From a virus: 64,000 bases of DNA. Of the stretch, positions 3,397 through 64,000 are shown in pieces (the stretch's first letter is position 1; each line of letters begins with the position of its first letter). Both the position numbers and the translations under genes were made by a program. The notes beneath the pieces were generated by a model that had not been told where the DNA came from, did no database searches, and worked only from the letters and a program-made list of their open reading frames with translations. Where the stretch lies: the IMG/VR virus record IMGVR_UViG_3300044634_004833, positions 90,942 through 154,941 of that record. One strand, given 5' to 3'.

Positions 3397-3404
3397 TATA
3401 AATA
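3397..3404 (+). promoter_or_regulatory. T4-late-like promoter TATAAATA
   Basis: Exact T4 late consensus upstream of helicase ATG 3428. Confidence 0.6.
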
Positions 3405-3427
3405 GAATATACTTTGTGGAGATAGAA

Positions 3428-7169: not shown

Positions 7170-7196
7170 CTGCGATAAATTTATCGTGGCCCCTAG
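7170..7196 (+). promoter_or_regulatory. class A motif CTGCGATAA-N14-CTAG within an imperfect palindrome
   Basis: Exact spacing; upstream of ATG 7237. Confidence 0.75.
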
Positions 7197-13014: not shown

Positions 13015-13042
13015 TTTTGTATTCTTAAAAAAGGAGATTTAA

Positions 13043-19684: not shown

Positions 19685-19711
19685 CTGCGATAAGTTTTTC
19701 AAATACTCTAG
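19685..19711 (+). promoter_or_regulatory. class A motif CTGCGATAA-N14-CTAG
   Basis: Exact spacing; upstream of MTase 2. Confidence 0.75.
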
Positions 19712-28293: not shown

Positions 28294-28364
28294 GAGATAA
28301 TCTATTTATTTAGCAACTATCTTAAAATTAATCTATTCTAAATAAATAATACAGGAGAAATACT

Positions 28365-38797: not shown

Positions 38798-38824
38798 CTG
38801 CGATGAAAAATTGAGTTTTCTTAG
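38798..38824 (+). promoter_or_regulatory. class A variant CTGCGATGA-N14-TTAG
   Basis: Exact spacing. Confidence 0.6.
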
Positions 38825-49592: not shown

Positions 49593-49701
49593 ATAGGGGA
49601 GGCTTTACATATCTACACGCTACATGACATGATGTGTGATATTAAAGTGATATCATTTTGAGATCAATATAATAAATGACTGTGGATTAGGAGACCCTTT
49701 C

Positions 49702-49785
49702 CATATCCACACCCATATCCACACCCATATCCACAGGCATGTATACACGCATATCTACACGCATATCTACACGCATATCTACACT
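49702..49785 (+). repeat. 7 x 12 bp tandem repeat CATATC(C/T)ACAC(C/G), putative origin iterons
   Basis: Units at 49702, 49714, 49726, 49738 (degenerate), 49750, 49762, 49774; extra copy at 49608. Confidence 0.9.
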
Positions 49786-49860
49786 TAGAATTTTTATATC
49801 AATGTGATATCATATAGATATAGAGTTTGTTGTAACAGTTTAGTATGAGTTATATGAGTA

Positions 49861-49894
49861 GGGGGGTCTGGCCCGTTTCCTTCCCAGACCCCCC
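49861..49894. other. GC-rich hairpin (terminator or origin structure)
   Basis: GGGGGGTCTGG...CCAGACCCCCC. Confidence 0.7.
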
Positions 49895-49910
49895 AAATTA
49901 TTTCAAGCCC

Positions 49911-50365
49911 TTATTTCTCCCGAGCATCCGACCTTTTTTGATTAATTTGAATTACCTGTTTGGGCTTATTTTGAACTTTTTCAATTTTCCATGTGATGAC
50001 TAAAATTCCATTTTCCAAGGAAGCGGTGGGGGGTAGACTGAGCAAACGAAGGATGATTGTCGTAGTTCACGGGCGTAGAACTGGGCAGATTCTGGGGCGT
50101 GTAAGTCGTGATGCATACGGCCCTTTATCGTGAGGGTGTTATCTTCGTTGTACGAGAGTTCTAGATCTTCGGAGGTACAGCCCGGTACAGCGAGGACTAG
50201 TTTGATTTCTTTGTCATCTAAGTAGTAATTAAGTTTTGGATAGCCGGTATTAGATTTAGCTGAGTTGAGTAGAGAATATCTTTGTCCGAAAAAATCGTTG
50301 AAGAATTTGTCAAAAGCGGCTTCCAATGGGAATAGAAATTCATCACGATGTGGTAAAATGTTCAT
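49911..50365 (-). pseudogene. frameshifted Hsp20 small heat-shock protein
   Basis: YPKLN..LAVPG..L.I.G..RE...SF in one frame; ASLENGILVITW..KPKQVIQI continues in another frame to TAA 49911. Confidence 0.8.
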
Positions 50366-50520
50366 AAAAACCTCACTAATGTTTTAATAGACCCCTCTAA
50401 TTTTATTAGAGCGTTTCAAAAGTAATCGAATATGTTATACGGTTGTCGTGAGATTTTTTGCAAGCGAAAATTTTGTCGTCCACAGGGGGAGCCAGCCCAT
50501 TTTATCTGGTTTATTGGAAC

Positions 50521-50640
50521 CGTGTACTTTTCAATGGGCTGGTGTACTTTTTGATGGAGCCGTGTACTTTTCAATTGAACCGTGTACTTTCGAATGGGCC
50601 GGTGTACTTAAATGGGGCCGGTGATGGAGCTGTGTACTTA
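50521..50640 (+). repeat. 20 bp-period repeat with core GTGTACTT
   Basis: Cores at 50522, 50542, 50562, 50582, 50602, 50632. Confidence 0.9.
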
Positions 50641-50962
50641 GTTCGGCCAGGGCGGGAGTCTCTGCCTCCCGAATATAGCTTTTTGTAGTCTAATGTTTTA
50701 ATAGGTGCTTCGACTTTTATTAGATTATATAAATTTTAATAGATTTTAGAACAACTGTGCCACTAAATTTATAATTTATATAATTTATGATGGCTATCAC
50801 AAATGTTATTTGTTATATTTAATGTAATGGCCTACAAAGGGAATTGGAGTAGGTCAATTCTAATTGGTGTGGGTACGAATCGGGAGGTTTTGGGTGTGGA
50901 GATGGCCCAAATGCGGTAGCGTTGCCTTATTATTATATGTGTGCGTAAGGGCGTGGGTGTGC

Positions 50963-50989
50963 CTGCGATAAAAAATGGAGAAGTATTAG
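50963..50989 (+). promoter_or_regulatory. class A motif
   Basis: CTGCGATAA-N14-TTAG. Confidence 0.75.
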
Positions 50990-51124
50990 GGGGCACCAGA
51001 AAAGGAGGCGGTGAAAATCTAGGATATGCAATGTTAATCTCACGCAAGGTGAGCGTTGTGAATTAAACCCGTGAATCCCCACCCGTCCTAGCGAAGGGGT
51101 TTTTACAACAATAAGGAGGGTTAT

Positions 51125-51334
51125 ATGACTAAGGGTTCTCGTGACTTGTTTCTTGCTGACATTCAGGCAGCGATTAAAGAGCATTACATACTTACTGAAA
51201 GGGAAGCTGAGTGTGTCTTGCATTCACTAAGAATTGATGTGCATGCAATTGATACATTGTTGAAATTCAAAAGATTGAGTCAAGACAAGGTTGACTTAAT
51301 TCTCTCTAAATCTAGAGAGGCTGGGTTGGTTTAG
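51125..51334 (+). CDS. small hypothetical early protein
   Basis: SD TAAGGAGG. Confidence 0.75.
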   Translation: MTKGSRDLFLADIQAAIKEHYILTEREAECVLHSLRIDVHAIDTLLKFKRLSQDKVDLILSKSREAGLV

Positions 51335-51335
51335 G

Positions 51336-51362
51336 CTGCGATAAAAAATGGAGTGTCGTTAG
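51336..51362 (+). promoter_or_regulatory. class A motif
   Basis: CTGCGATAA-N14-TTAG, 1 nt after a stop. Confidence 0.75.
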
Positions 51363-51470
51363 GGATCGCAAAATCGAGATGTGGTTGATGAAGAATGATA
51401 TCAATATTTTCTTGTGGTGTTTAGAGTTTGTGAAAAGGCTAAGAGTAGACAAAAAAAGGAGGGCTTAAAA

Positions 51471-51644
51471 ATGAAAGAAGAGCATATGAAAGTTATAGAA
51501 GAACTTCGGGATCTGGGATATGCGGTGTGCATATTTACTCCAGAGGAGTTGAGTGGAGCAAAGCCTCATAAGGTAGAGGATGAGCTTGTTTCTGCTGGGT
51601 GGGACATTATTGATACTTTGGCTACAGAAGAGGAGGTTATATGA
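51471..51644 (+). CDS. small acidic hypothetical protein
   Basis: SD AAGGAGG; ATG 51471. Confidence 0.75.
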   Translation: MKEEHMKVIEELRDLGYAVCIFTPEELSGAKPHKVEDELVSAGWDIIDTLATEEEVI

Positions 51645-51853
51645 TTGATCCTATTGTTGTTAAGTTGGATATAGACTGGGCTTCTTTGAGGGAACAAAAG
51701 GCTGAGTTAATTAAGTATGCTTGGAAAGATGCTGATAGCAATAAATTGCTTGAAGGGATCATCAGCATTATAGATGCTATTCAGGATCAAGCTGTGGATG
51801 AAAATGGTTTGAGTGAAATGTTGGTCTTTGGTGAGAATTTTGGGAAGTCTTGA
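51641..51853 (+). CDS. small hypothetical protein
   Basis: ATGA overlap; GGAGG. Confidence 0.75.
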   Translation: MIDPIVVKLDIDWASLREQKAELIKYAWKDADSNKLLEGIISIIDAIQDQAVDENGLSEMLVFGENFGKS

Positions 51854-51901
51854 AAATTACGATAATTTTATAGCGTATGACCAATTAAGGAGGGCTTAAA
51901 A

Positions 51902-52324
51902 ATGGCTACCAGAGGTACTTATCAGTTCATTGATGATTCTACTAAGACTACCATTTATGTTCATTGGGACAATTATTTGGAAGGGGCAGCAAATTACTTT
52001 TATAATATGCTGACCAATCCTAGTAAAGGTAATTTGGCGACTCAATTTATTAGAGCAGTTAGTCATGCTGAAATAACAAGGTCTCATGCTCGTCATGGAG
52101 ATACTGAATTTCAATATAATATAAAAGGTTCTGATGGTGGTGCAGAACTTGTAGTCAATAGTCCATGCACTAATACAGTTGTGTATAGTGGTGTACTTTT
52201 TGATTTTATCAACGATCATAGTAAGTTAATTGAAAATTACAAGCCTATAAGAAAGTATGTCAATGAGTGGGGTTCTATTCAGTATATGACTGTCGATATG
52301 GCTGAGAGAATGAAACTATGCTAA
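51902..52324 (+). CDS. phage protein with M.TR...YxHWD motif
   Basis: MATRG..IYVHWDNYLEG; SD AAGGAGG. Confidence 0.75.
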   Translation: MATRGTYQFIDDSTKTTIYVHWDNYLEGAANYFYNMLTNPSKGNLATQFIRAVSHAEITRSHARHGDTEFQYNIKGSDGGAELVVNSPCTNTVVYSGVLFDFINDHSKLIENYKPIRKYVNEWGSIQYMTVDMAERMKLC

Positions 52325-52596
52325 AAGTATTTTTATATCAAGAGGGCAGTTTATTTTCAGAAGGAAGTACAGGTAGCAAAGTATTTCCTTCTGATGAAAA
52401 AATTTATAAGTTTAAAAAAAAGCCATTTTCAAGTATGTGGACAGATGAAGTACTTCCTATGTTATGGCATAGTTTTTGGTTTAACAATGAATTTGGAAGT
52501 TCTTACCTTTTTGCAAGAAGTAACGATAGTTGGGAATGGGCTTTAGAGAATATGGTATTTGGCCCTAATTGGAGAGAGCAGAGAGAGAAGTATTAG
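52318..52596 (+). CDS. hypothetical protein
   Basis: Overlaps the upstream stop. Confidence 0.6.
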   Translation: MLKVFLYQEGSLFSEGSTGSKVFPSDEKIYKFKKKPFSSMWTDEVLPMLWHSFWFNNEFGSSYLFARSNDSWEWALENMVFGPNWREQREKY

Positions 52597-52599
52597 GGG

Positions 52600-52626
52600 C
52601 TGCGATAAAAATAAGTTACTTTCTAG
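52600..52626 (+). promoter_or_regulatory. class A motif
   Basis: CTGCGATAA-N14-CTAG. Confidence 0.8.
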
Positions 52627-52659
52627 TGCCCGTAAGAATTAAAGTAAAGGAGGTGAATT

Positions 52660-53379
52660 ATGCCTAATTGGTGTGCTAATGATTTGACTATCTCTGGAAA
52701 AACAACTGATATTAACGCTATGGTTGAATTATTTGATGTAGATGCTAATGGGGTTGTTATATTTAGTTTTGAAAAGATATATCCTACTCCAGATGAATTG
52801 AAGAATGATGATTTATGGTCATCTGGTACGAGTGCAGATACAATAGCAAAGCAATATAAAAGAAACGATCCTTTGACTGATATAGATGGAGTTTCATTGT
52901 TAGGTAGAGACTGTGTGTTATCAGAAGGGGTAAAAGAGTTTCTGGATGACAGTAGGTATATTGATTGGGTTAATTCATATGTTCTTTTAAAAGAAGAAGA
53001 TGACGAAGATAAGATTATGAGTTTTGCTCAAGATTTTGTTAAAATGGTAAACAGACTGGAAGCTTATGGTTTTACTGGTTGGTATGGTTGGAGGGTTGCC
53101 AATTGGGGAACTAAATGGGATGTTGCTCCAGATGATGCATCAATCAATATTGTTGAATATAAGGGTAATAGAAACAAATCAAAATTTTCTTCAACATTTG
53201 ATACAGCTTGGTCACCTCCTATTGGTGTATTGCATAAGTTATCAGAAAGGTTTCCAGAATTGGAAATTAAGGTAGCATTTTTTGAAGGTGGTTGTTGTTT
53301 TAAGGGTACTGCTAAGTTTAAGGGTGGAGAACTGATAAGTTCTACAGAGGGTTCGTATCGTGGCCCTAGAGGGGGTTAA
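52660..53379 (+). CDS. DUF1281/YubB ferredoxin-like domain protein
   Basis: MPNWCAN, W..NWGTKWD, FDTAWSPP. Confidence 0.85.
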   Translation: MPNWCANDLTISGKTTDINAMVELFDVDANGVVIFSFEKIYPTPDELKNDDLWSSGTSADTIAKQYKRNDPLTDIDGVSLLGRDCVLSEGVKEFLDDSRYIDWVNSYVLLKEEDDEDKIMSFAQDFVKMVNRLEAYGFTGWYGWRVANWGTKWDVAPDDASINIVEYKGNRNKSKFSSTFDTAWSPPIGVLHKLSERFPELEIKVAFFEGGCCFKGTAKFKGGELISSTEGSYRGPRGG

Positions 53380-53393
53380 TAATAAAATTTGAA

Positions 53394-53556
53394 CCTTTGA
53401 CCAAAGATATATCGTCAACTACCCCCAGCTAAAGCAGGGAGCTTGTCATTCCAAGTTTCGTGCTGACTTTTAGTCCAGTTCCGGCTTTCAGCCGGAACAC
53501 ACGGAATCTGAAATCAGATTCAACGGACGACATTAGGCTGATTGATGCAGCCCTAT
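53394..53556 (-). ncRNA. putative TnpB-type omega RNA (about 140 nt scaffold plus 3' guide)
   Basis: TTGAAC-N16-TATAAT promoter (53589-53562); several hairpins; ends ...GGGGGTAGTTGAC then flank. Confidence 0.55.
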
Positions 53557-53640
53557 GTTTAATTATAGTGTTGTTTTGTTTAAGTTCAAGAGCCAATTCC
53601 TCCCCCGACTAAAGTCAGGGGGGATTCCTTGGCTCGAAGA
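53414..53640 (-). mobile_element. non-autonomous IS200/IS605-family mini-element (no tnpA or tnpB)
   Basis: Terminal GTCAAC plus hairpin CCCCCAGC-TAAA-GCAGGGAG; second hairpin CCCCCGAC-TAAA-GTCAGGGGG; far boundary approximate. Confidence 0.75.
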
Positions 53641-53658
53641 TCTTGAAAAAGGGGATGC

Positions 53659-53685
53659 CTGAGATAAAAAGTGAGGTATGTCTAG
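53659..53685 (+). promoter_or_regulatory. class A variant CTGAGATAA-N14-CTAG
   Basis: Exact spacing. Confidence 0.7.
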
Positions 53686-53709
53686 TAGGAAAAGAAAAGG
53701 AGGTGCTTT

Positions 53710-53931
53710 GTGGATTTGGAATCTTTGAGGGAAAAGGTTGCCAACGAATTGTGGGAAGGTGCAGATCTACCTGAGCCTTTAAATAAGGAGGGTGAGCGCA
53801 CCCAATGGGTTAAGTATAAAAAGCAAACCAATGTGTGGGTGCGATGTTTTCGGGGAAAGACTCGGAATGAAATTTTCCGAATTAAGTGGAAGTCAAAATC
53901 TATTGAATTTGTTTCAGCAGGTTTGATGTGA
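53710..53931 (+). CDS. small hypothetical protein
   Basis: SD AAGGAGGT; GTG start. Confidence 0.7.
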   Translation: MDLESLREKVANELWEGADLPEPLNKEGERTQWVKYKKQTNVWVRCFRGKTRNEIFRIKWKSKSIEFVSAGLM

Positions 53932-54137
53932 GACACATTCATAGGATACACATAGGGGTTTCCAATTCTATGTTAGATATGCCAGCTGACTGCGAGAAAG
54001 AAGGCTGGCGTATGGTTTGGGATTGGCAGGGGGAGAGATGGAGCTTCTCTGAATCCAATTGTTGTTCATTTAGAAATGACTTGAGACATAATAGGTTACT
54101 AGGTCAAGATTACAACGAAGGATTTTTTTATAGCTGA
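53928..54137 (+). CDS. small hypothetical protein
   Basis: GTGA overlap with the upstream stop. Confidence 0.5.
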   Translation: MRHIHRIHIGVSNSMLDMPADCEKEGWRMVWDWQGERWSFSESNCCSFRNDLRHNRLLGQDYNEGFFYS

Positions 54138-54150
54138 AAGGAGGTGTAAC

Positions 54151-54750
54151 ATGATTGAACTTAGTGATGTTATTCCTGCCGTATTAAAGACATACAAAAA
54201 AGAGCAGCGTGTATTTATTAATATTCGACCTAATGATAATAAGGTATATGTTAATAGAGAAGGAAGTTCTATACTAAAAGATAGTCAATTTATCAAGTCG
54301 GTTACAAAGTTAATGGGATTGTTTACAAATGAAGAGTTAGTTGAATCTGCTAAAACTTTAGCTAGGTGTTCATTTGGCAATTTGGCAAAAGATTTTGAAG
54401 ATAGGGATTTTTTTATAGATATAGAAGATGGTATTTGTAATGATGAATTAACAAAAATTAGTTGGTTTATTCAGTTGTGTAGTTTGTCATTTGCTTATGA
54501 TTTTTGTATAGCAGATATAGACTTTAGTGAATCTATTTCTGATATTGAAAATCCACATATAAAAGTAACTATTGTTTCAAATCAATCTAAAAACCAATTT
54601 GATGTTGTATATGATATTGATGAAGATGAAGGTGAATGTGAAGAATGTGGGTATCTAGAGTGTGAGTGCTGTGCAGATTGTGAGTGTGCAGATTGTGAGT
54701 GTTATGATGATGATGATTTTGATGATGATGATGATGATGATGAAGAGTGA
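54151..54750 (+). CDS. hypothetical protein with Cys-rich, highly acidic C-terminal tail
   Basis: SD AAGGAGGT; ECEECGYLECECCADCECADCECYDDDDFD7EE. Confidence 0.8.
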   Translation: MIELSDVIPAVLKTYKKEQRVFINIRPNDNKVYVNREGSSILKDSQFIKSVTKLMGLFTNEELVESAKTLARCSFGNLAKDFEDRDFFIDIEDGICNDELTKISWFIQLCSLSFAYDFCIADIDFSESISDIENPHIKVTIVSNQSKNQFDVVYDIDEDEGECEECGYLECECCADCECADCECYDDDDFDDDDDDDEE

Positions 54751-54777
54751 CTGCGATAAAATCTTGGGGTTGTCTAG
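54751..54777 (+). promoter_or_regulatory. class A motif
   Basis: CTGCGATAA-N14-CTAG abutting the TGA stop. Confidence 0.8.
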
Positions 54778-54804
54778 TATTCAATTAAGAAAGGAAGTGT
54801 TGAT

Positions 54805-55179
54805 ATGAGTAGTAGCTTCTATATCTGCATTCATCTACATGAGATGTATATGATTAAAGGTTCTATGGTTTATATGTTAGAGAACGATCTTACTATGCTT
54901 AAAGAACAAGCCCAACTTTTGGCTAGAAGTTGTGAGTGGTTTGACAAGAAGTGTAGCAATAATGATATAATCAATGGTTGGAAAGCAAATGGCGATGATC
55001 TTGATGAGTGGATTATTGCATTATGGTTTGCTATGGATGTAGATCCAAATTTGAATGAAAATCATAAGGAAACATTGCGTAGATTGGCATGGTGGCTGGA
55101 TGATGTAGTTGCTTCAGAATTACCGCTAGAGACTGTGCATAGTTCTCCGATGGTTGTAAAAGCGAGGGAAGTGGGCTAA
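54805..55179 (+). CDS. hypothetical protein
   Basis: SD AAGGAAG. Confidence 0.7.
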   Translation: MSSSFYICIHLHEMYMIKGSMVYMLENDLTMLKEQAQLLARSCEWFDKKCSNNDIINGWKANGDDLDEWIIALWFAMDVDPNLNENHKETLRRLAWWLDDVVASELPLETVHSSPMVVKAREVG

Positions 55180-55192
55180 TTTTATTAGCTGG

Positions 55193-55202
55193 CCCGTATA
55201 AT
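55193..55202 (+). promoter_or_regulatory. class B promoter motif CCCGTATAAT
   Basis: Upstream of 55226. Confidence 0.65.
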
Positions 55203-55225
55203 TTATTTTCAGGAGGGAAGCAATT

Positions 55226-55816
55226 ATGCAAAGTAATGATAAATTAGCCAAGTGGAAGGCCCGTCTTAGTTATTTCAAGGATGAGATGGGTTTTGGCCCT
55301 TTGAAGCAATATCGCAACGAGGAGGGCAATCTTCATAGGGATGATGGCCCTGCGTGGATTTCCCCTACTAGAGTGATTTGGTATCAGAATGGGCGCAAGC
55401 ATGGTCTTGATGCTGATATTCATGGTAGTATTCATTACTACTTTGAGAATATTAGGATACCTCCACACTTCTATACAAAGCCTGATTCTTTGACTGTAGA
55501 AGAAGTATTAGGCCATCCCAATGCAGAGTGCCGATATGTAGGCATGAAATGTATTGGTATGGATAAAGTAATGAATCATAAGAGGACAAAGGTGATTCAC
55601 AAGGATAATAGCAAGGGTCAGGTTTTGTTTATGATTGGTGGTATATTTGATGAGCCTGTAGCTTATGTAAAGGTTGTTAATAGTACACAAGAGCCAGATG
55701 GTAGTTATAAAGACTATTATCTATGTGTTCCACCTACTTGTAAAACTTGTTCTGAAGCTGTCAGTTGGACTTTTGGCTTAACTGCTGATAGCTATCGTCC
55801 AGAGCAGGAGACATAG
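55226..55816 (+). CDS. DUF6745-like domain protein
   Basis: LHRDDGPA; KVVNST.EPDGS.K.Y.L.VPP...AV.WTFGL...Y.P..ET. Confidence 0.8.
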   Translation: MQSNDKLAKWKARLSYFKDEMGFGPLKQYRNEEGNLHRDDGPAWISPTRVIWYQNGRKHGLDADIHGSIHYYFENIRIPPHFYTKPDSLTVEEVLGHPNAECRYVGMKCIGMDKVMNHKRTKVIHKDNSKGQVLFMIGGIFDEPVAYVKVVNSTQEPDGSYKDYYLCVPPTCKTCSEAVSWTFGLTADSYRPEQET

Positions 55817-55817
55817 G

Positions 55818-55844
55818 CTGCGATAAAAAATTGAAAAGTTCTAG
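55818..55844 (+). promoter_or_regulatory. class A motif
   Basis: CTGCGATAA-N14-CTAG. Confidence 0.8.
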
Positions 55845-55876
55845 TGCTTGTACTGAGGGGCAAAGGAGGGACAAAG

Positions 55877-56290
55877 ATGTTGGAACAGGCACTAGAACAT
55901 TTGAAGCAGGATGAGTTTAGGGAAGCAATGATGCTTCTTTTGTCTAATCCTGATAAGTTTTCTTCTGAAGATAGGAAGAAGATTTCTAAGTATTGTTTAT
56001 CATCATGTCCAGATATGGCAGATGAAATCTTTACATTGTGTAAGGTTAAGTCTGATACTGAAATGATGAAGCAAGCATTTCAGCATATCAAGCTTAGTAA
56101 TAACAATACTCTTATCTACGCTATTGAATTGGGCCTTGATGCTGTAGCTGAAAGGCTAGTATCAGAGGGCAAGGTCAATAACTTAGATGCTGCCATTTAT
56201 AAATGTTTGCTTTTGCAGAATGGTGTTCTAGCTGGCAAGCTATTGGATATTAAAGCAAAAAGGCAAGCTGAGAAGAACCAGCAATCCTGA
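55877..56290 (+). CDS. helical (ankyrin-like) hypothetical protein
   Basis: SD AAGGAGG; LIYAIELG..VAERLV. Confidence 0.7.
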   Translation: MLEQALEHLKQDEFREAMMLLLSNPDKFSSEDRKKISKYCLSSCPDMADEIFTLCKVKSDTEMMKQAFQHIKLSNNNTLIYAIELGLDAVAERLVSEGKVNNLDAAIYKCLLLQNGVLAGKLLDIKAKRQAEKNQQS

Positions 56291-56292
56291 GC

Positions 56293-56319
56293 CTGCGATA
56301 AAAATAAGTTATTCTCTAG
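56293..56319 (+). promoter_or_regulatory. class A motif
   Basis: CTGCGATAA-N14-CTAG. Confidence 0.8.
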
Positions 56320-56349
56320 TGGGCAACATTACTCTAGGAGGGACAACAA

Positions 56350-57519
56350 ATGACTCATGCTGAAAAATTAGAACAGATTGAAAAATTCAATGAGCTTGCT
56401 CAGAATGGTGAGTGGGAGCAAGCGATAGATATGGTTATATCAGACTTTGATATAAGTTTGTTTAACCTTTCTTCCCGCAAGAAGTTTGTCCAGTATTGCA
56501 AAGATAATGTTACTGAAGATAACGATATTTCTAATAAAAATAAGGTTGTAATTTTCAAGTCTATTGAATCTTTGAGGGTTGTTACAGATAAGTTATTAGG
56601 TGTGCCGATTGCTGAAGAGAAGATAAATTCTCTCCATTCATTTATCCGTATGGGATATGGAATTACTGATTTTAGCAGGGATAAAATAGACTTTTTTTCT
56701 AGCATAGATTTTGCTAAGAATGAGTATTCTTATAACAAATTTGTTGGTGTATTCTTCAATAAAATGAATTTTTCGCATCCTGAGATAAATTGGTATATTA
56801 CTAAGATTATGGATAGTGCTGGTAGGCATAGGTATAACATTAGTTTGGAGAACTCTAAGAAGTTGTTAGACATAGGTTTTTCTGAAAGTTATCCATTTAA
56901 TATGGAAGGATTGTTTTCTATTGATAAATCTCTTATCAATAGAACTACTAAAATAGTTCTTGATAAAAAGAATACAGATTTGGCCAATTACTTATTTACT
57001 GCTTGCTGTGAGAGAAACAATAGAGAATATATTGTTTCTTTGCTTGATAATGGATTTAAGTCTATTACCAATGGAATTCAGATTGCAATAAATAGTAATC
57101 ATTTTGGTCTTGCTACGCTTATATTGAAGTATAAGCCTAGAAAGTTCAGCCTTAGCATGGTTCAATGGCTTATGGACAGATACCACAATCTTGCTAGGAG
57201 GTATTCAGATCGCATTCTTACTATTGTGGATAAATATGCAAAATATGATGTATCTACTAGTAAAAGTTATGCTGAAGAAGCAACTAAGCATGCTAAGCTT
57301 AGTGTTGATGTTATCAATTGCATTCAATATTCACTTGATAGAAAGCCAGATGAAAGTTGTTTGAGCTATATCAAAACAGTTGCTAATGATGCCTCTCATT
57401 ATTTGGATAAGATTAAAAACATTGGTTTAGAGATTGAATCCTATAATATTCCAGCGTTTAGGTGTTTTGATAATGACTTGCGACAAATGGATTCTTATCA
57501 ATCTAATGTTGCTCGTTAG
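56350..57519 (+). CDS. hypothetical protein with ankyrin-like segment
   Basis: SD AGGAGG; AC..NN.E.IVSLLDNG...AI..NH..LA..IL. Confidence 0.75.
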   Translation: MTHAEKLEQIEKFNELAQNGEWEQAIDMVISDFDISLFNLSSRKKFVQYCKDNVTEDNDISNKNKVVIFKSIESLRVVTDKLLGVPIAEEKINSLHSFIRMGYGITDFSRDKIDFFSSIDFAKNEYSYNKFVGVFFNKMNFSHPEINWYITKIMDSAGRHRYNISLENSKKLLDIGFSESYPFNMEGLFSIDKSLINRTTKIVLDKKNTDLANYLFTACCERNNREYIVSLLDNGFKSITNGIQIAINSNHFGLATLILKYKPRKFSLSMVQWLMDRYHNLARRYSDRILTIVDKYAKYDVSTSKSYAEEATKHAKLSVDVINCIQYSLDRKPDESCLSYIKTVANDASHYLDKIKNIGLEIESYNIPAFRCFDNDLRQMDSYQSNVAR

Positions 57520-57520
57520 A

Positions 57521-57547
57521 CTGCGATAAAAAATGGCTATTGGTTAG
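57521..57547 (+). promoter_or_regulatory. class A motif
   Basis: CTGCGATAA-N14-TTAG. Confidence 0.75.
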
Positions 57548-57588
57548 TAGTCATGCTCATCAAGGTGGTCTTGGTGAGAAAAGTAACC

Positions 57589-57615
57589 CTGCGATAAGTT
57601 ATCGCAGTTTGCTAG
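57589..57615 (+). promoter_or_regulatory. class A motif containing a perfect inverted repeat CTGCGATAA-G-TTATCGCAG
   Basis: Exact spacing to CTAG. Confidence 0.8.
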
Positions 57616-57663
57616 TGTGTGCCGGTGGTGTTTATTACTTTGTTGTTAAGGAGGGTTAATACT

Positions 57664-58767
57664 ATGGCTCGTACCAAATCTGCTTCTACTGTGTGGCTTG
57701 AGAATGTTTTGACTTCTAATCCTGATCTGCGTTTTGCAGAGGCAGTTGGCCATCCTGACTATGCCAGCAATGGCTTCAACTTCGATGCTGCGTATTTCAA
57801 CGCAATTAAGTGTCGATATAAGAAGTCCCTTACTGGGGCTGGTGTTGGTACTGGTGGGTCTGTTGCTGTTGTTTCTCCGTCTCAGACTTCCGTAACTGAT
57901 CGACAGAATTATGATTATGACTCTGATACAACAGAGATGATTCCATCTGTCGATCCGCACTATGTGCTGACTGGAGAGAACATTTCCTTCTTTGAATTGG
58001 TTCAGAAAATGTCTGATTCAAAGAATGTGAATGTGCGTCTGGTTGGGCCAGCTGGTTGTGGTAAGACTAGCTTTGCCAGCCAATATGCTGCAAAGTATAA
58101 CTTGCCTCTTATGGTTGTCAACTGTGCGAATGTGCGTGAACCAAGAGATTGGTTCGGCTATCGCAAGTTGGATCAAGATAAGAATCTTGTCTGGCATGAA
58201 AGTCTCTTTGTTAGGATGCTAGAGACTCCTAATGCTGTTATCGTGCTGGACGAAACGAATCGTTGTCCTATGCACACACTTAACACTTTGTATCCTCTGC
58301 TTGACCATCGTAGGTCTAGCTATCTTGAGGAGGCTAATCGTACTCTAACTGTTGCAGAAGGCGTTACCTTTTGGGCAGCTATGAACGAGGGCAATCAGTT
58401 TACTGGTACTACTCAGCTAGACGAGGCTTTTGCTGATCGTACTGGTCTGGTGCATGAGTGTAAGTTTCTTTCTCTAGAGGACGAGACACTTGTGTTGCAC
58501 AATCGTACTGGTCTTGATAAAGCAAACTCGTTAAAGCTAGTGGAGATTGCCGATCAAGTGCGTAAGAAAGCACTTATGGATAGTGGTGATAGCTTTAGCA
58601 AGCCTATCTCTACTCGTATGCTTGAGGAGGCTGCTGCTGCGTTTGTGATTGGGGGGCCTAATACTATGGTCTATACTCTGCTTAATCACTTTAGTTCAAG
58701 TGGTGGCACTACTAGCGAGCGTCATAACTTGAAGACTCTACTGACTGGTAAGTTTGGCCAGCTGTAA
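57664..58767 (+). CDS. MoxR/CbbQ/NirQ-type AAA+ ATPase (phage CobS-like)
   Basis: GPAGCGKTS, VLDETNR, AAMNEG, LDEAFADR, ISTR. Confidence 0.9.
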   Translation: MARTKSASTVWLENVLTSNPDLRFAEAVGHPDYASNGFNFDAAYFNAIKCRYKKSLTGAGVGTGGSVAVVSPSQTSVTDRQNYDYDSDTTEMIPSVDPHYVLTGENISFFELVQKMSDSKNVNVRLVGPAGCGKTSFASQYAAKYNLPLMVVNCANVREPRDWFGYRKLDQDKNLVWHESLFVRMLETPNAVIVLDETNRCPMHTLNTLYPLLDHRRSSYLEEANRTLTVAEGVTFWAAMNEGNQFTGTTQLDEAFADRTGLVHECKFLSLEDETLVLHNRTGLDKANSLKLVEIADQVRKKALMDSGDSFSKPISTRMLEEAAAAFVIGGPNTMVYTLLNHFSSSGGTTSERHNLKTLLTGKFGQL

Positions 58768-58788
58768 GGTTTTAGTTGTTTTTTCTGC

Positions 58789-58823
58789 CCCCTACCCATA
58801 TAACTTATGGGTAGGGGTTTTTT
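58789..58823 (+). terminator. rho-independent terminator
   Basis: CCCCTACCCATA-taact-TATGGGTAGGGG-T6. Confidence 0.88.
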
Positions 58824-58840
58824 CGTTGACGAAAACAACC

Positions 58841-58867
58841 CTGCGATAAAAAATAGATTATCTCTAG
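58841..58867 (+). promoter_or_regulatory. class A motif
   Basis: CTGCGATAA-N14-CTAG. Confidence 0.8.
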
Positions 58868-58906
58868 TGTGTGTGGTGGTAAGGTAACTTAAAGGAGGGC
58901 CAAAAA

Positions 58907-60991
58907 ATGAGCAATAATGATGATGGCTTGTTTGACTTTGACAATGAGGATTTGGATTTGGAGAAAGATTTGCGTGGCCCTTCTAAGTTTGATGCTTCAA
59001 GTATTCCAGATGACCACCCATATCTTCCACAGAATCAAAATAAGGCTCCGAAGACTTACGATGTTACCAACTGGCATGAAGGTCAGTTTGGTCAACGCAC
59101 TAGCTGGTACACTTCCTTCACTCCGATGAAGTCTACTTCAGAGTATCTCCGTAGTAGCAGCTATGGTAGCTATGGATATTATGATAACTATTCTTCTTAC
59201 AAGAAGAAAACTGATACTGAAGTTATTTTGCAAGAGCAATTGCATGAAGTTCTGAAAGAGCTTAACAAGACTATCAATCTTACCAGTAACTCTAATACTG
59301 GCAAAGAGGAAGTTCTTAATGTTAAGTATTCTAATGGCATGGTTGTTAATGATCTAATGTCTAACACTTTGTTTGTTTCTCCTAATGTTATGCTGGAGAA
59401 TGAAGAAAAATTAAAGAGTGGCGACACTTATTATGACTCTCTTGATGGTCTTAATGGTCAAGCTATGTTGTGTGCCTTTATGAAAAAGGGCATTCATGCT
59501 GATGCTAACATTCAGTACAAAGAGAGTGCGTCTTGGGCTACTCGTAATATCTTTATGTCAGATATTCAATCTACTGCTGCTGGTGAAGTGTTTAGCAAGT
59601 GGCCTGGCTTTATGAGCTATATCACACAACAGATGACTGTATTTGGTGTGCGTAAAGATGTAGTTCTCAATCGCTTTCGTCAGGAAGTTATTCTTCTTGA
59701 TGATCTAGTTGAGTGCCTTTGCTATAATCGTCTTGCACCAGATAAGATTGACTATAGTATGTTCGACGAAGAAATTGTTAAGAAGATGCTGCTTGCAGAT
59801 AAAGACTTCAACGATATGATGGATATTGATTGTGAGTCTGCTTTAAGATTCCAGAAAGCAATTCGCATCTATGAGAATGTTCGTGATATTCTCAATCTTA
59901 ATTCGATGGATTTGAATGCTAGGTTTAATGCTTCTGGTATGAGTGTTCCAGCAAAACCTACAGATGATAGTGTTGACGAATCACTTTCTGGCAAGAAAGA
60001 GATTAAAGATGAGCCTTCTGAATTGAAGCGAGACTTTACTGGCGACAATAGTTACAACAATCATAAAGAGATTGAAGGTGATATTGTCTCTGGTATTCTT
60101 GACCACAATAAGAAGATGAAAGAAAGACTGAAGGAGTTGGAAGATAAGTTGGCTAGTGATCTCAGTCAGATGGAGATTCTGAATGATGTTACTTACAAAA
60201 TGATGATTCCTCCAGTCAATAAGGAACAGATTGCTGATTATGATAACTATGTCCGTAGCAATCGTAAAGCTATCGACAGTATCAAAAATGGTATGATGTT
60301 CCATAACAATCATCCTAATGTCTTCAGTTATGGTTTGACTGATGGCGATATTGATGAACATGCTCTCTATAAGATTCACTTTGGAGAATGTCAGCGTATC
60401 TTTGAGCGCAAAGATATAATTGGTGATAAGAGCTATCATGTTACTTTGGTTATTGACCAATCTGGTAGCATGGGTGGAGGAAAGATTACTGAAGCTGCAA
60501 AGCTATGTATCTTGTTCTCTGAGGCTTTAAAGTATCTCAAAGCTACAGAAGTGTCTATCTATGGTTTTGAGACGCATGATATTCGCACTTGGGTCTATAA
60601 GGATAAGATTTATGATAAGACTAAGGCTTTGATTCATGCTAAAGAAGATGGTGGTACTGCAATGGGATACCATTTGGGTTCTATTGGTGATAAGGTACTC
60701 ACTCAGTATGGGGAGTTTGATAACAAGTTTATGTTTGTTATCTGTGATGGTGGCCCTACTCATGCACCTGAAGGTATGCACCCAAAACAGCATACTGCTA
60801 AGGTTATTCAGAAGTTGCGACAGAAAGGTATCAAAGTATATGGGATTGGTATCCTGAATGCTTTTGATGATTCTACTGGCAATGATATATTCGGTGAAGG
60901 AAACTTTACTGTAATCAATGATATTGCTGGTAGTCTTCCTGTCCTTTGCAATAGGATGCGTAAGTATCTGCAAAAGACTTCTAAGGCGTGA
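58907..60991 (+). CDS. VWA-domain protein (CobT-like MoxR partner)
   Basis: MIDAS motif IDQSGSM, GGT, ICDGGP, YGIGI. Confidence 0.88.
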   Translation: MSNNDDGLFDFDNEDLDLEKDLRGPSKFDASSIPDDHPYLPQNQNKAPKTYDVTNWHEGQFGQRTSWYTSFTPMKSTSEYLRSSSYGSYGYYDNYSSYKKKTDTEVILQEQLHEVLKELNKTINLTSNSNTGKEEVLNVKYSNGMVVNDLMSNTLFVSPNVMLENEEKLKSGDTYYDSLDGLNGQAMLCAFMKKGIHADANIQYKESASWATRNIFMSDIQSTAAGEVFSKWPGFMSYITQQMTVFGVRKDVVLNRFRQEVILLDDLVECLCYNRLAPDKIDYSMFDEEIVKKMLLADKDFNDMMDIDCESALRFQKAIRIYENVRDILNLNSMDLNARFNASGMSVPAKPTDDSVDESLSGKKEIKDEPSELKRDFTGDNSYNNHKEIEGDIVSGILDHNKKMKERLKELEDKLASDLSQMEILNDVTYKMMIPPVNKEQIADYDNYVRSNRKAIDSIKNGMMFHNNHPNVFSYGLTDGDIDEHALYKIHFGECQRIFERKDIIGDKSYHVTLVIDQSGSMGGGKITEAAKLCILFSEALKYLKATEVSIYGFETHDIRTWVYKDKIYDKTKALIHAKEDGGTAMGYHLGSIGDKVLTQYGEFDNKFMFVICDGGPTHAPEGMHPKQHTAKVIQKLRQKGIKVYGIGILNAFDDSTGNDIFGEGNFTVINDIAGSLPVLCNRMRKYLQKTSKA

Positions 60992-60997
60992 TAGCAA

Positions 60998-61031
60998 AAG
61001 GGGGCTGAGATAAAAACTCAGCCCCCCTTAG
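60998..61031 (+). promoter_or_regulatory. hairpin (terminator-like) overlapping class A variant CTGAGATAA-N14-TTAG (61005)
   Basis: GGGGGCTGAG-ataaaaa-CTCAGCCCCC. Confidence 0.7.
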
Positions 61032-61055
61032 TTGTCAAAAGAAAAGAGGTGTGCA

Positions 61056-61490
61056 ATGGTAAGTAAAGAATTCATTCTGGCAGGGAGAGCAATCTTCTCT
61101 ATTACTATACCAGAGGGTTTTGCTAAGAAGAATAAGATTGCCACCTCTTTCATCTACAGAGTAGCTAAGAAGCCAGACGCTTCTGTTTACTTTGTCAGTA
61201 TCATGGATGCTGCTAACAATGATTATCAATACATTGGTATGTTAAGTGCAGATACTGGTGAGGTCAACCTTACCCGCAGTTCGCATATCAACACCGAAAG
61301 TTTGGTCTATAAGCTAATCAATAGAATCCTACAAAATATTTGGGGTGGAACTAGCGATAAGATTATAGAGTCAGGATTCCAAGTTGAACACTTGGGCAAG
61401 TGTGGAAGGTGCGGATGCAAATTACTAACCAAAGAATCGATGGTTAGAGGCATCGGTCCAGAATGTCTAGCTATGTTAGGATTGAGCTAG
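61056..61490 (+). CDS. DUF6011-like zinc-finger protein
   Basis: CGRCG.KL...S..RGIGPEC. Confidence 0.8.
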   Translation: MVSKEFILAGRAIFSITIPEGFAKKNKIATSFIYRVAKKPDASVYFVSIMDAANNDYQYIGMLSADTGEVNLTRSSHINTESLVYKLINRILQNIWGGTSDKIIESGFQVEHLGKCGRCGCKLLTKESMVRGIGPECLAMLGLS

Positions 61491-61558
61491 CATTAAATAT
61501 AAACTATAAAGGTTCCCAGCCTCTTAATGGGACCGTGTACTTAATAAGGGGGTGCCCA

Positions 61559-62098
61559 ATGCAACCCGGGAATACTCACAAGGTCCTGATCAATAATAAA
61601 TGGCAAGGGGCAATCATAGTCAGGGAGAGACCAGATATCTATGAAGTAAGACTGAGTGATTCTAATTCAGTCATAGGCATTCGAAAATCGTTTCTAAAGG
61701 CCTTTCGACCCCTGCCCAAGGGACTTGGATCAGATAGCCCCCTGATCGCCCGTTTTAGGGCCATAAATTATGATGAGCTGCTTAGACTGGTGCTGCAGGC
61801 AAGCAAGTTCTTAGACCCCGGGGAAGTGCTCAAAATAAACCAAGATGGTTCGATATCTGATGGTTCCGGAGCTGTAACAATCAAAGTTGGGACAATGGAT
61901 CAGGTTACTGATGAATTCATTGAAGAGGTCCCAGCATGGGTTATTACTCTTAATGACCCATATGTTGGCACCAGCGTCGTAGCCACTTGTGTGGAGGCCC
62001 TTCCTGCTGCAGAGGCTTTTACTAAAGCTTGGTATCACAGAAAAGCTACTCTTTACTTCGATACTTTGAGACTAAGTACTTTTAGGATATTAGTCTGA
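61559..62098 (+). CDS. hypothetical protein
   Basis: AAGGGGGT SD; ATG 61559. Confidence 0.65.
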   Translation: MQPGNTHKVLINNKWQGAIIVRERPDIYEVRLSDSNSVIGIRKSFLKAFRPLPKGLGSDSPLIARFRAINYDELLRLVLQASKFLDPGEVLKINQDGSISDGSGAVTIKVGTMDQVTDEFIEEVPAWVITLNDPYVGTSVVATCVEALPAAEAFTKAWYHRKATLYFDTLRLSTFRILV

Positions 62099-62125
62099 CT
62101 GCGATAAAAAATAAGTTATTCCTAG
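62099..62125 (+). promoter_or_regulatory. class A motif
   Basis: CTGCGATAA-N14-CTAG abutting the TGA stop. Confidence 0.8.
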
Positions 62126-62155
62126 GGAGTATAACAAACGAAAAGGAGGTGTCGA

Positions 62156-62707
62156 ATGGAAACAACACTTAACGACAGGTTCGCAGTTGGTAAGGATGTT
62201 ATTGTTATGGCTACTAAAGCTGTTGGCAAAGTAGTAAAGCATGAAGGGGGCGAAGGGGAACTTCGTCAGACTAGAGTTTCTTTTGGGAGTTATGAAAAGG
62301 TCTACGATCAGTATTATCTGGCACCATATAAGAAAATCAGATCTGATGCTCTGGATACCTTTTGTTTGCTAGTTGACAATCTGGTTGAATCTATTAATAA
62401 TGTTTGCACTAAATTCAATCTGCCTAAAGTGCAATATAGTGATGGTCGAATTTTTGATAGTGTTTATGGACTGAGTTTAACTCCTACTGTATCATATCGT
62501 CATAGTATTAGTGGGTTTATTGAATATTGCTGTTGGGAGATGTCTATCAGCAGTACTATGTCTAAGGATCATGGATGGGATGGCACTATTCATGTTTTTG
62601 AAGAAATGAATGAAGTTATGACTAGCATTTATAATGCTACTAAGGTATATGTTGCGGAGTTAGCTAAGATCGCTGTTAATCATGCAGTTAATAAAGAATT
62701 TGAATAA
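62156..62707 (+). CDS. hypothetical protein
   Basis: SD AAGGAGGT. Confidence 0.75.
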   Translation: METTLNDRFAVGKDVIVMATKAVGKVVKHEGGEGELRQTRVSFGSYEKVYDQYYLAPYKKIRSDALDTFCLLVDNLVESINNVCTKFNLPKVQYSDGRIFDSVYGLSLTPTVSYRHSISGFIEYCCWEMSISSTMSKDHGWDGTIHVFEEMNEVMTSIYNATKVYVAELAKIAVNHAVNKEFE

Positions 62708-62717
62708 TGATTTAAAG

Positions 62718-62799
62718 AGCCACCGATTGGACTTGAACCAACAATGAGAAAACTCGCCGGTTTACAAAACCGGTCCCTTACCATTCGGGGCACGGTGGC
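62718..62799 (-). tRNA. tRNA-Thr(UGU) with long variable arm, CCA not encoded
   Basis: Acceptor GCCACCG/CGGTGGC; anticodon arm CCGGT-TTTGTAA-ACCGG; variable CGAGTTTTCTCATT; T arm GTTGG-TTCAAGT-CCAAT. Confidence 0.85.
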
Positions 62800-62821
62800 G
62801 TGATACTTTATTATAGTTCGC

Positions 62822-62848
62822 CTGCGATAAAAATCCAATACATCTTAG
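62822..62848 (+). promoter_or_regulatory. class A motif
   Basis: CTGCGATAA-N14-TTAG. Confidence 0.78.
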
Positions 62849-62868
62849 TTTGCAAAGGAGGGCCAACA

Positions 62869-63303
62869 ATGCAAACGATTCTTCATACTTTTCAATTCTG
62901 CGAACATAACTTTCATTATGTGCAAGCCCCTTGTCCTACATCCCACGCCGTCACCCATGAGGTGGTTGGCGTGACGAAGGATGATTCAGAGTTCCTCTAT
63001 TCCAATGAGGAACTACTTCATGCTGTTTTTGAATATGGCAGGATAATCTGGTTATCTAAGAAGGACGAACTAAAAGAAGAAAGTGTGCCAAGTATGACGC
63101 TTGATGAGGCTCAAAAGTTAGGCGAAGGCATGGAAGTTAATTATCAAGGCTATTCTTGTCTGATAAGGAAAGTCATGTTCTTCGGTGGGAACCATCCTTA
63201 CTGGATATTGGCCCCAGAGATGGGAATGCCGAAACAAATGCGTGTGAAGGTGGGAGGAGGCCCTATTAGCTATGCTGCTTGCCAGCCTGTTGGGCTGCGA
63301 TAA
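62869..63303 (+). CDS. hypothetical protein
   Basis: SD AAGGAGG; ATG 62869. Confidence 0.7.
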   Translation: MQTILHTFQFCEHNFHYVQAPCPTSHAVTHEVVGVTKDDSEFLYSNEELLHAVFEYGRIIWLSKKDELKEESVPSMTLDEAQKLGEGMEVNYQGYSCLIRKVMFFGGNHPYWILAPEMGMPKQMRVKVGGGPISYAACQPVGLR

Positions 63304-63340
63304 ATTTTCGAAGAATACTGTGGATTGGGAAAAAATGATT

Positions 63341-63350
63341 GCCGTATAAT
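63341..63350 (+). promoter_or_regulatory. class B promoter variant GCCGTATAAT
   Basis: Upstream of 63425. Confidence 0.55.
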
Positions 63351-63424
63351 TCCCTGTGCGGAGGTGGTCTCTGCACTAAGTTTAATCTGTGTTTGATTTT
63401 AAGTGTATAAAGGAGTATTAGCAC

Positions 63425-63934
63425 ATGAACCCTAAATTTGCCACCAACAATCGCTACGAAGATAATCCCCAGTTCAACATTGGTCTACTTGGCAAATTTG
63501 TTTGTCTAAGTTGCAACAAGAAGATGCTTTCTGACATTAAGGATATTATTTCCAATGATGGAGAAAGCAGCAAGGATTTTACTAACTTCTTGGATGATGC
63601 TGTAAGAATGATGGCTTGCGAAGGCACTACTTCGGAAACGGAAGAGTATCAGATTGCTCGGTTCGATGGTGTTTACACCATTCACATGACCCAGGAATTT
63701 GCAAAGGATGTTTCTTATTGTTTGTACGATATTCTAAGATCTCAAACTAGCAATCATCCTAGGGCCAATGTGGTGTTTGCTCTTAGCAAACGGTTGAACC
63801 TAGCTGCTGAAGGTGATTTCAAGGCACTTCAGACAACTGCTGCCGGTAGGCAGATGCCTCCTCCGATGCCTTACCCGATGTTTGGCTACTATCCTCCACA
63901 GCCCCGTGGCGGGAGGTTTAGTTATGGCCGGTAA
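63425..63934 (+). CDS. hypothetical protein with Pro-rich C-terminus
   Basis: SD AAGGAG. Confidence 0.75.
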   Translation: MNPKFATNNRYEDNPQFNIGLLGKFVCLSCNKKMLSDIKDIISNDGESSKDFTNFLDDAVRMMACEGTTSETEEYQIARFDGVYTIHMTQEFAKDVSYCLYDILRSQTSNHPRANVVFALSKRLNLAAEGDFKALQTTAAGRQMPPPMPYPMFGYYPPQPRGGRFSYGR

Positions 63935-64000
63935 ATTGATTAGGCTTCATAAGGTTAAGATTCGCAAACCTTTGGAAGTTTCTAATGGGAAGATGGTTTT

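Follow-up and report, generated by a model that had tools for sequence, protein, structure and literature searches.

The last 64 kb of a virus contig in IMG/VR (record IMGVR_UViG_3300044634_004833, positions 90,942 to 154,941; this stretch of 64,000 nucleotides is called the window below) carries a repeated bipartite motif, CTGCGATAA-N14-YTAG, in front of many of its genes. The account we favor, with somewhat better than even confidence, is that this 27-base signal is a promoter that would be read through a fast-evolving sigma factor of the phage's own. Most likely, about 50 accessory genes would be run in this way as separate exchangeable units. The parts of this account differ in strength. 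The motif is very probably a promoter, its reading probably involves a phage-encoded factor, and a divergent sigma-like protein called g89 is the best candidate for that factor, with chances that we put at about even. The motif, its statistics, placement and pattern of conservation, the sigma genes and the hairpins are seen directly in the DNA; from them we infer the start of RNA at the motif, the particular sigma that reads it, the timing of expression and a role in recombination.

The phage is uncultured. The record is a single contig of 154,941 bp with 33% GC and no terminal repeats. CheckV estimates its completeness at 31%, and it is therefore a piece of a huge phage of roughly the 0.5-Mb class. 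It encodes a split DnaE polymerase, PrkA, SpoVR, helicases and giant RCC1-repeat proteins. The region where the motif is densest is a succession of small plus-strand genes, the majority without a family assignment. The exceptions include an Api92-like (DUF1281_C) gene, a DUF6745 gene and a MoxR/CobS-like AAA_5 ATPase gene that is paired with a VWA/CobT-like gene.

A search of GenBank phages for a close DNA relative found none, tblastn with the VWA protein matched distant Stenotrophomonas phages only, and scans of IMG/VR by protein pattern and by motif gave no useful match. Related contigs were found through exact-protein look-ups in freshwater metagenomes. The most useful is a 271-kb contig (contig 1) of the NCBI assembly GCA_964453335.1, called G001, in which the AAA_5 protein is 96% identical and the DNA about 80–84% identical to that of the phage studied here. 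The G001 metagenome-assembled genome is labeled Acidimicrobiaceae. This family was considered as the host and rejected: the bin is chimeric, with contig 2 at 72% GC and the phage-like contigs 1 and 5 at 33–42%, and its label is therefore uninformative on the host. Further contigs come from sister lineages, such as L024, whose AAA_5 protein is 72% identical, and array gene content varies between lineages.

A bipartite motif with promoter-like properties

The window contains 13 exact matches to the motif, at 7170, 19685, 50963, 51336, 52600, 54751, 55818, 56293, 57521, 57589, 58841, 62099 and 62822. The number expected by chance is 0, the motif being absent from 100 dinucleotide-preserving shuffles. 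The initial annotation had listed 16 copies with exact spacing. The other three, at 53659 and 61005 (CTGAGATAA) and at 38798 (CTGCGATGA), keep N14-YTAG intact and each have one mismatch. Its statement that all copies are on the plus strand holds for the exact and the one-mismatch copies alike. Two degenerate copies had also been proposed: the one at 63295 has a perfect first block and is conserved in the same form in a relative, whereas the one at 51857 (TTACGATAA ... ACCA) is without any support and was rejected as not credible.

Every copy in the window is intergenic and co-oriented with the genes, and its TAG lies 20–48 nt ahead of a start codon led by a Shine–Dalgarno (SD) sequence of the AGGAGG type. 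As had been noticed earlier, copies tend to follow stop codons closely, with six array copies beginning 0–3 nt past the preceding one (gaps of 3, 0, 1, 2, 1 and 0 nt). Outside the window there is one more copy, which begins at genome position 69950 and stands 63 nt ahead of the gene for g89. With this copy included, the distance to an SD-led start on the coding strand ranges from 20 to 63 nt.

In G001, contig 1 carries 55 copies on one strand. Four are dispersed, at positions syntenic with those of the present phage, and 51 fall within 45.5 kb (16.4–61.9 kb), about one per 0.9 kb, with distances from TAG to start codon of mostly 19–54 nt. The window therefore holds just the opening 13 kb of an array of about 45 kb, the rest of which would lie beyond the contig end. 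The rest of the G001 bin (about 3.5 Mb) gives a single weak hit. A scan of 185,579 species genomes, of the kind that the initial annotation had suggested, found scattered single hits across all phyla and no clustering of the motif in any of them apart from the G001 contig.

Conservation is confined to the two blocks and their spacing. Over 12 orthologous pairs of copies, block 1 and block 2 are each 97% identical, compared with 64% for the spacer and 56–68% for the flanks, and a gap between the blocks is needed in none of the pairs. The alignment of 68 sites from two phages gives the extended consensus S-n-CTGCGATAAAAAwT-N9-YTAGT-nn-G-Y-R, with CTGCGA and TAGTnn exactly 18 bp apart in all 68. 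This arrangement fits the geometry of a sigma-70-family promoter, in which CTGCGA(TAA) would be the −35-like element and TAGTnn the −10-like element. The T and A at positions 25 and 26 of the −10-like block are invariant. A pyrimidine–purine step is conserved at positions 32/33 (93% pyrimidine, 94% purine), as is a further one at 35/36, and transcription would probably start at one of these two steps, 6–9 nt past the −10-like element.

Hairpins provide a second line of evidence. In G001, 16 of the 51 array copies stand directly behind hairpins of −24 to −39 kcal/mol that end 3–8 nt before the motif, and many of these hairpins belong to one sequence family (GATAGCAC..CCAAAGCY..GTGCTATC). Genes that follow a copy placed directly behind a strong terminator therefore need a fresh transcription start. 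Sites matching the sigma-70 consensus are not enriched in the array (49, against 45.6 in shuffles). The initial annotation had read the motif as a promoter for a phage-encoded or alternative sigma factor or RNA polymerase. Its reading is strengthened by the invariant spacing, the sigma-70-family geometry, the co-orientation with genes, the conservation of the blocks alone, the copies behind terminators, the background level of sigma-70-type sites in the array, the lack of clustering in bacterial genomes and the presence of sigma-like genes in the phage, one of them with the motif upstream.

Three other kinds of element were considered and rejected. An RNA element was set aside, as Rfam has no family at the motif and the two blocks are unable to pair with one another. 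A site like the integron attC was rejected for want of an inverted-repeat architecture, and paralogous gene families as the source of the repeated promoters were rejected because the array proteins include no paralogs. A literature search with the first block, CTGCGATAA, returned no relevant paper, the string matches being primers only.

The same geometry bears on whether the motif might be the promoter of a phage RNA polymerase (RNAP) that works without sigma, either a single-subunit enzyme of the T7/N4 kind or a multisubunit one like those of phiKZ and AR9. The terminal TA-G could be read as positions −2, −1 and +1 of a T7-like promoter, and the contig lacks about 69% of the genome. In promoters of the T7 type, conservation is unbroken between −17 and +1, whereas here positions −12 to −4 are free. 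Both the two-block geometry and the presence of three sigma-like genes in the phage group point instead to the host core RNAP. The earlier suggestion to look for sigma or RNAP genes bore fruit on one side: the sigma-like proteins are there, g89 with the motif upstream, and no T7-like RNAP was found on the contig in a search with PF00940, whose control was uninformative. We regard a dedicated phage RNAP as a very improbable reader.

Sigma-like proteins and the proposed reading of the motif

Three motif classes are enriched in the upstream regions of the contig. Class A is sigma-70-like, TTGTTT/TTGTAT-N16-17-(CCC)TATAAT, with examples at 2380-2420 and 13000-13045 of the window and at 63130-63160 of the contig. 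Class B is the CTGCGATAA-N14-YTAG motif. Class C, TATAAATA, resembles T4 late promoters and lies 4–28 nt before start codons, for example at 28340-28365 and 3400-3428 of the window. The phage group also has three sigma-like proteins. The first, g84 (302 amino acids), is RpoD-like in regions 2 and 4, and matches PF04542 and PF04545 above their cut-offs. Its regions 2.4 and 4.2 are invariant across five lineages, with overall identity down to 52%. The second is a gp55-like late sigma of 181 amino acids that matches phrog_234 and was found only in the relative (G001:C1:240721-241266); comparison with T4 suggests that it would fit class C.

The third protein, g89, has 274 amino acids and is encoded at 70040-70864 of the contig, 21 kb upstream of the window. 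It matches profiles of sigma region 2 weakly, with sigma hits in Pfam and NCBIfam that do not reach the curated cut-offs and no hit in PHROGs. Its structural model (predicted local distance difference test score, pLDDT, 80) shows a sigma-2-like domain followed by a disordered linker and a C-terminal domain of four helices, together with an extra N-terminal helical region, and nearly all of the top 40 or so structural matches are full-length sigma chains. The g89 and g84 families align weakly with hhalign, in region 2 only. A scan with the g84 alignment found only distant phages (23–37% identity), none with a g89 homolog.

The elimination of the other sigmas and the co-divergence of sigma and motif make g89 the best candidate. 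In the five lineages examined, the g89 gene is preceded by a sigma-70-like promoter and then by a copy of the motif. This order, with a class-A-like promoter first, is seen in the present phage, G001 and L010, in which spacer and leader have diverged. Wherever a lineage has a TGCGA-type motif, a copy stands upstream of its g89 gene. Sister lineages differ in its form: CTGCGATAA-N14-YTAG in one, TGCGATARTC..GTTCGTTA in another and, in the array of L025, CTGTAGGTGGTTGTTT-N8-TAGGTTAAGG, in which the register of CTG and TAG is retained. No match to the L025-type motif came out of a metagenome scan. The g89 homolog of L027 is preceded by TGCGATAATCAAGTCGTAGTTCGTTAC, the variant that punctuates the L024 array, and that of L026 by TTGCGACAA-N15-TTAG. 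Between the present phage and L027, identity is 68% for g84 and 56% for g88 (a neighboring protein of 234 amino acids), compared with 30% for g89, and the C-terminal helix of g89 varies across lineages.

Divergence of the motif between sisters also bears on the idea that the phage exploits the promoter of a host alternative sigma, of the extracytoplasmic function (ECF) type or of group 3. The −10 element of sigma-28/FliA promoters is GCCGATAA, and the CGATAA core of the motif resembles it. Against a host sigma, no conserved element lies upstream of CTGCGATAA at the place of the sigma-28 −35, and the partner block sits 14 nt downstream instead. Sisters with proteins 56–72% identical use clearly different motifs, which would be unexpected if the host dictated the sequence, and the scattered single hits in the 185,579 species genomes, like the one weak hit in about 3.5 Mb of the G001 bin, give no sign of a host regulon. 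This origin therefore seems improbable.

A different arrangement, reminiscent of sigma appropriation, would have a phage protein bind CTGCGATAA at about −30 as an activator, while the host primary sigma or g84 reads a weak TAG.. −10. The first block is indeed centered near −30 and starts with TGC like the MotA box (PMC4122927). The second block is short and changes little among lineages (YTAG, TTAG, TTAY), as would suit a conserved reader such as g84 with its invariant region 2.4. An open reading frame (ORF) of 124 amino acids at 34365-34739 of the contig gives a faint MotCF hit; at 15.8 bits against a cut-off of 25, this is a level that control genomes reach too. Neither AsiA nor a MotA N-domain was seen, none having been searched for. 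Unlike in a T4 middle promoter, the box is TGCGATAA rather than TGCTT and the −10 is not TAnnnT, the TAGTnn here having no T(−7), and g89, a full-length sigma-like protein, is tied to the motif. We consider an activator unlikely.

Several points weigh against a sigma of the phage, and g89 in particular, as the reader. Sigma-70-type region 2 normally needs T(−7), and the equivalent position is T in 29 of the 68 sites only. There are two possible start sites that cannot be told apart. The g89 protein stays under the curated cut-offs of every sigma model (28.4 bits against 42.9 for TIGR02937), and the motif ahead of its gene is evidence for membership of g89 in the regulon but not for a role as reader. 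The assignment of L024, which supplies the array, and L027, which supplies the sigma locus, to the same lineage depends on one common 26-nt motif. The TGCGATA core is common to lineages whose g89 proteins are only 30% identical. The most distant relatives (L029, L038, L039 and L167) carry a repeated GGCGAAAM near g89, upstream of an ordinary TTGACA-N17 promoter; a third co-varying motif had been expected in these homologs, and what they carry does not fit simple co-variation and is not counted as support. Lastly, the contig covers only about 31% of the genome, and other factors may be encoded off-contig.

With g89 as the likeliest sigma, the proposed mechanism would run as follows. Host core RNAP would carry the phage sigma to the motif. 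A little g89 would be made from an ordinary promoter, after which g89 would boost its own gene through the motif and then turn on about 50 single-gene units (13 kb of them in the window) and a few dispersed genes, including the DNA-methyltransferase operon. Dependence on a phage sigma would make delayed-early or middle a more probable class than early, unless the sigma is delivered with the DNA.

A small basic ORF of 43–49 amino acids is conserved in distant relatives between the 234-amino-acid minus-strand gene and the g89-like sigma gene (L026 413-544, L027 3256-3405, L029 1707-1838 and L039 9768-9902). It is absent from the present phage and might be a regulator or an anti-sigma candidate.

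Possibly exchangeable units and their known counterparts

Many units of the array consist of a terminator hairpin, the probable promoter, an SD and a small ORF. A 27-bp promoter that recurs about every 0.9 kb in one orientation, often with its hairpin, would serve as a short homology for gene replacement between related phages. In a comparison with the relative L021 over 13 kb, 4 of the 8 boundaries of replacements or indels fall no more than 20 nt from a motif copy. One replaced segment, of 1.7 kb, runs from the copy at 50963 to that at 52600, a second replacement stops 16 nt short of the copy at 53659, and the half-copy at 63295 is the exact end of a 430-bp insertion. In G001, an identical 27-bp unit, spacer included, stands at 26803 and 27531 before unrelated ORFs. 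Identical units before unrelated ORFs and breakpoints at the copies fit recombination at the repeats.

These observations could be taken further, to the view that the repeats are mainly recombination substrates, as mobile cassettes or a site-specific site, with promoter activity secondary or absent. The hairpin-plus-promoter modules, the identical units, the 4 of 8 boundaries near copies and the differences in array gene content between lineages would all suit it. The breakpoint association is confounded with gene boundaries, however, because copies fill nearly every intergenic gap, and breakpoints at gene boundaries coincide with them anyway. Selection acts on two blocks and their spacing rather than on the overall length of homology. 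Dispersed copies stand before conserved sigma and methyltransferase genes and show no signs of being mobile, there is no associated recombinase, and the inverted-repeat architecture of attC-like sites is lacking. A primarily recombinational role is hard to credit on these grounds. As for the shuffling of cassettes that the initial annotation had proposed, the modules, the identical promoters and the 4 of 8 boundaries support it in part, while the link to breakpoints is inseparable from gene boundaries.

The closest counterparts of the units are the PeSL and PmSL elements, composites of a terminator stem-loop and a promoter that lie between ORFans in the hyperplastic regions of T4-type phages (PMC2839356; PMC4122927). 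The promoter in a PeSL is an early one of the host sigma-70 type (TTGACA-N17-TATAAT or a variant), and that in a PmSL contains the MotA box (Arbiol et al. 2010, PMC2839356; Comeau et al. 2014, PMC4122927). As in PeSLs, a stem-loop and promoter are repeated between small ORFans and differ in sequence by lineage; they may also mark replacements in close relatives, with the confounding by gene boundaries described above. A subset of the copies has a terminator-like stem-loop directly upstream, as PeSLs do (58789-58817 and 61000-61026 in the window, 16 of 51 in G001). Unlike in PeSLs, a strong hairpin is present at only about one-third of the copies, and the promoter part is CTGCGA-N18-TAGTnn. The phage, with its split DnaE-type polymerase and a genome in the class of about 0.5 Mb, is also unlike T4-type phages. 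The motif units would work like PeSLs and yet fall outside the PeSL family, because their promoter part is of another kind than the sigma-70 early one and the phage does not belong to the T4 type.

Phage sigma cascades with a private consensus are the second counterpart, with examples in gp28 and gp33/34 of Bacillus phage SPO1 and gp55 of T4 with TATAAATA. In the present group, as in these cascades, sigma-family proteins of the phage would redirect the host core RNAP to promoters with a non-host consensus, with several classes per genome, and the group shares with T4 a late sigma of the gp55 kind and sites of the TATAAATA type. The candidate sigma differs from those of SPO1 and T4 in having no PHROG hit and a role predicted from sequence, and its own gene is preceded by the motif. 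To our knowledge, CTGCGATAA-N14-YTAG matches no known phage sigma promoter consensus.

ECF sigma genes are usually preceded by their own target promoter. In its likeness to such autoregulated sigmas, the g89 model has a sigma-2 domain, a linker and a sigma-4-like domain, the gene is preceded by its presumed target promoter, and specificity diverges between paralogous or orthologous groups. Unlike an ECF sigma, g89 is 274 amino acids long with an extra N-terminal region and scores 28.4 bits against 42.9, and no anti-sigma partner was identified. ECF promoters typically carry an AAC/CGT signature, which the motif lacks.

The finding joins two known kinds of system, the promoter classes specific to phage sigmas and the PeSL-type regulatory cassettes. 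A wider version, which we offer tentatively and think rather doubtful, is that each sister lineage has a private, fast co-diverging sigma/promoter pair. The pair would insulate an arsenal of about 45 kb and 50 individually promoted ORFans from host regulation and from co-infecting relatives, with terminator-plus-promoter modules as the shuffling units. A still bolder extension would have the sigma carried with the virion and the array truly immediate-early. Huge uncultured phages encode sigma factors, and we know of no report on the promoters and regulons of these factors. The present case offers a testable pairing between a 27-bp promoter and a candidate sigma of a family outside Pfam and PHROGs, with a regulon of about 55 sites and natural specificity variants in sisters. 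If confirmed, the temporal gene classes of huge phages could be annotated from sequence alone, and PeSL-style promoter–terminator cassettes would not be limited to T4-type phages or to host-type promoters. Confirmed pairs would also be a source of orthogonal sigma/promoter systems.

Individual copies and neighboring features

All copies described in this section are on the plus strand and, like the features around them, are given in window coordinates unless another contig is named. The dispersed copy at 7170..7196 lies 40 nt before a gene for a 324-amino-acid protein with no assigned function (7237-8211). Its ortholog in G001, at 109865, keeps N14 through compensating +T/−C indels in the spacer. 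The copy at 19685..19711 lies 43 nt before a DNA methyltransferase gene (19755-20675; PF01555, E-value 4.6e-48) that heads a multi-gene operon, and its G001 ortholog at 96248 is identical, spacer included. The one-mismatch copy at 38798..38824 (CTGCGATGA) stands 42 nt before a gene for 267 amino acids (38867-39670), with a TATAAATA-type site in between. The syntenic G001 site at 77696 has a perfect first block and a different spacer.

Within the array, the first copy (50963..50989) contains the left breakpoint of the 1.7-kb replaced segment, the copy at 51336..51362 lies within that segment, and the copy at 52600..52626 marks its right edge, 3 nt past a stop codon and 33 nt before the Api92-like (DUF1281_C) gene. 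The one-mismatch copy at 53659..53685 lies 24 nt before an ORF of 73 amino acids (53710-53931), and its ortholog is also CTGAGATAA. Three copies then follow stop codons closely: 54751..54777 (0 nt past the stop and 27 nt before a 124-amino-acid gene), 55818..55844 (1 nt past the end of the DUF6745 gene and 32 nt before a 137-amino-acid gene) and 56293..56319 (2 nt past the stop and 30 nt before a 389-amino-acid gene).

The MoxR/CobS-like AAA_5 ATPase gene (57664-58767) is preceded by tandem copies at 57521..57547 and 57589..57615. The second lies 48 nt before the gene, and its first block and spacer form a perfect palindrome, CTGCGATAAGTTATCGCAG. An intrinsic terminator follows the gene on the same strand at 58789..58817, with a 12-bp stem and then TTTTTT (dG −26.3, z −5.5), and is conserved in a relative. 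Another copy, at 58841..58867, stands 23 nt behind this terminator and 39 nt before the VWA/CobT-like gene (58907-60991). The one-mismatch copy at 61005-61031 is part of a composite at 61000..61031, in which the first block lies inside a hairpin with a 10-bp stem, GGGGGCTGAG..CTCAGCCCCC (61000-61026), that is preserved in a relative by changes on both arms.

The copy at 62099..62125 begins 0 nt past a stop codon and 30 nt before a gene for 183 amino acids. The next, at 62822..62848, comes after a minus-strand tRNA-Thr gene and 20 nt before a gene for 144 amino acids. At 63295..63303 the first block stands alone, with CTGT instead of YTAG; the TAA in this block doubles as stop codon for the gene before it, and the block is the right boundary of the 430-bp insertion in the relative.

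A spacer palindrome, ATAAGTTAT/ATAACTTAT, occurs in about one-third of the promoters at two different offsets (52612-52620, 56305-56313, 57594-57607 and 62112-62120 in the window, and many G001 sites). It may be an operator through which a dimeric regulator controls one sub-class of these promoters.

The stretch at 49600-50960, between a minus-strand gene for 121 amino acids (50000-50365) and the first array promoter, is a control region with several types of repeat. Tandem 11-nt repeats (CCATATCCACA / GCATATCTACA) lie at about 49700-49790, TGATATCA palindromes at about 49640 and 49805, and seven repeats with a GTGTACTT core, about 20 nt apart, at 50510-50640; there is also an AT-rich stretch. 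Comparable repeats are found in relatives, of the ATAGGTGTGTAC type in L024 (750-1480) and as ATATCCAC runs before some G001 and L025 promoters. This repeat-rich region may be a replication origin or a region where regulators bind.

The tRNA-Thr gene (62717-62799, minus strand) sits inside the plus-strand array. At the same spot L021 has about 100 bp extra (15079-15181) that resembles a second tRNA by its appearance, no tRNA finder having been used. The array protein encoded at 54151-54750 (199 amino acids) ends in a long run of aspartates (…DDDDDDDEE), a part that is highly variable among close relatives. A faint match to HEARO, the guide RNA of the IscB/IS605 type, lies at 53414-53542 (E-value 0.043, far under the gathering score) in a 240-bp segment that is non-homologous in a close relative, and a TnpB-like ORF is found at the start of the contig, at position 5. 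The array (50000-64000) has a GC content of 36–41%, compared with typically 28–35% elsewhere in the window except near 30–34 kb, and a strongly positive GC skew of up to +0.36.

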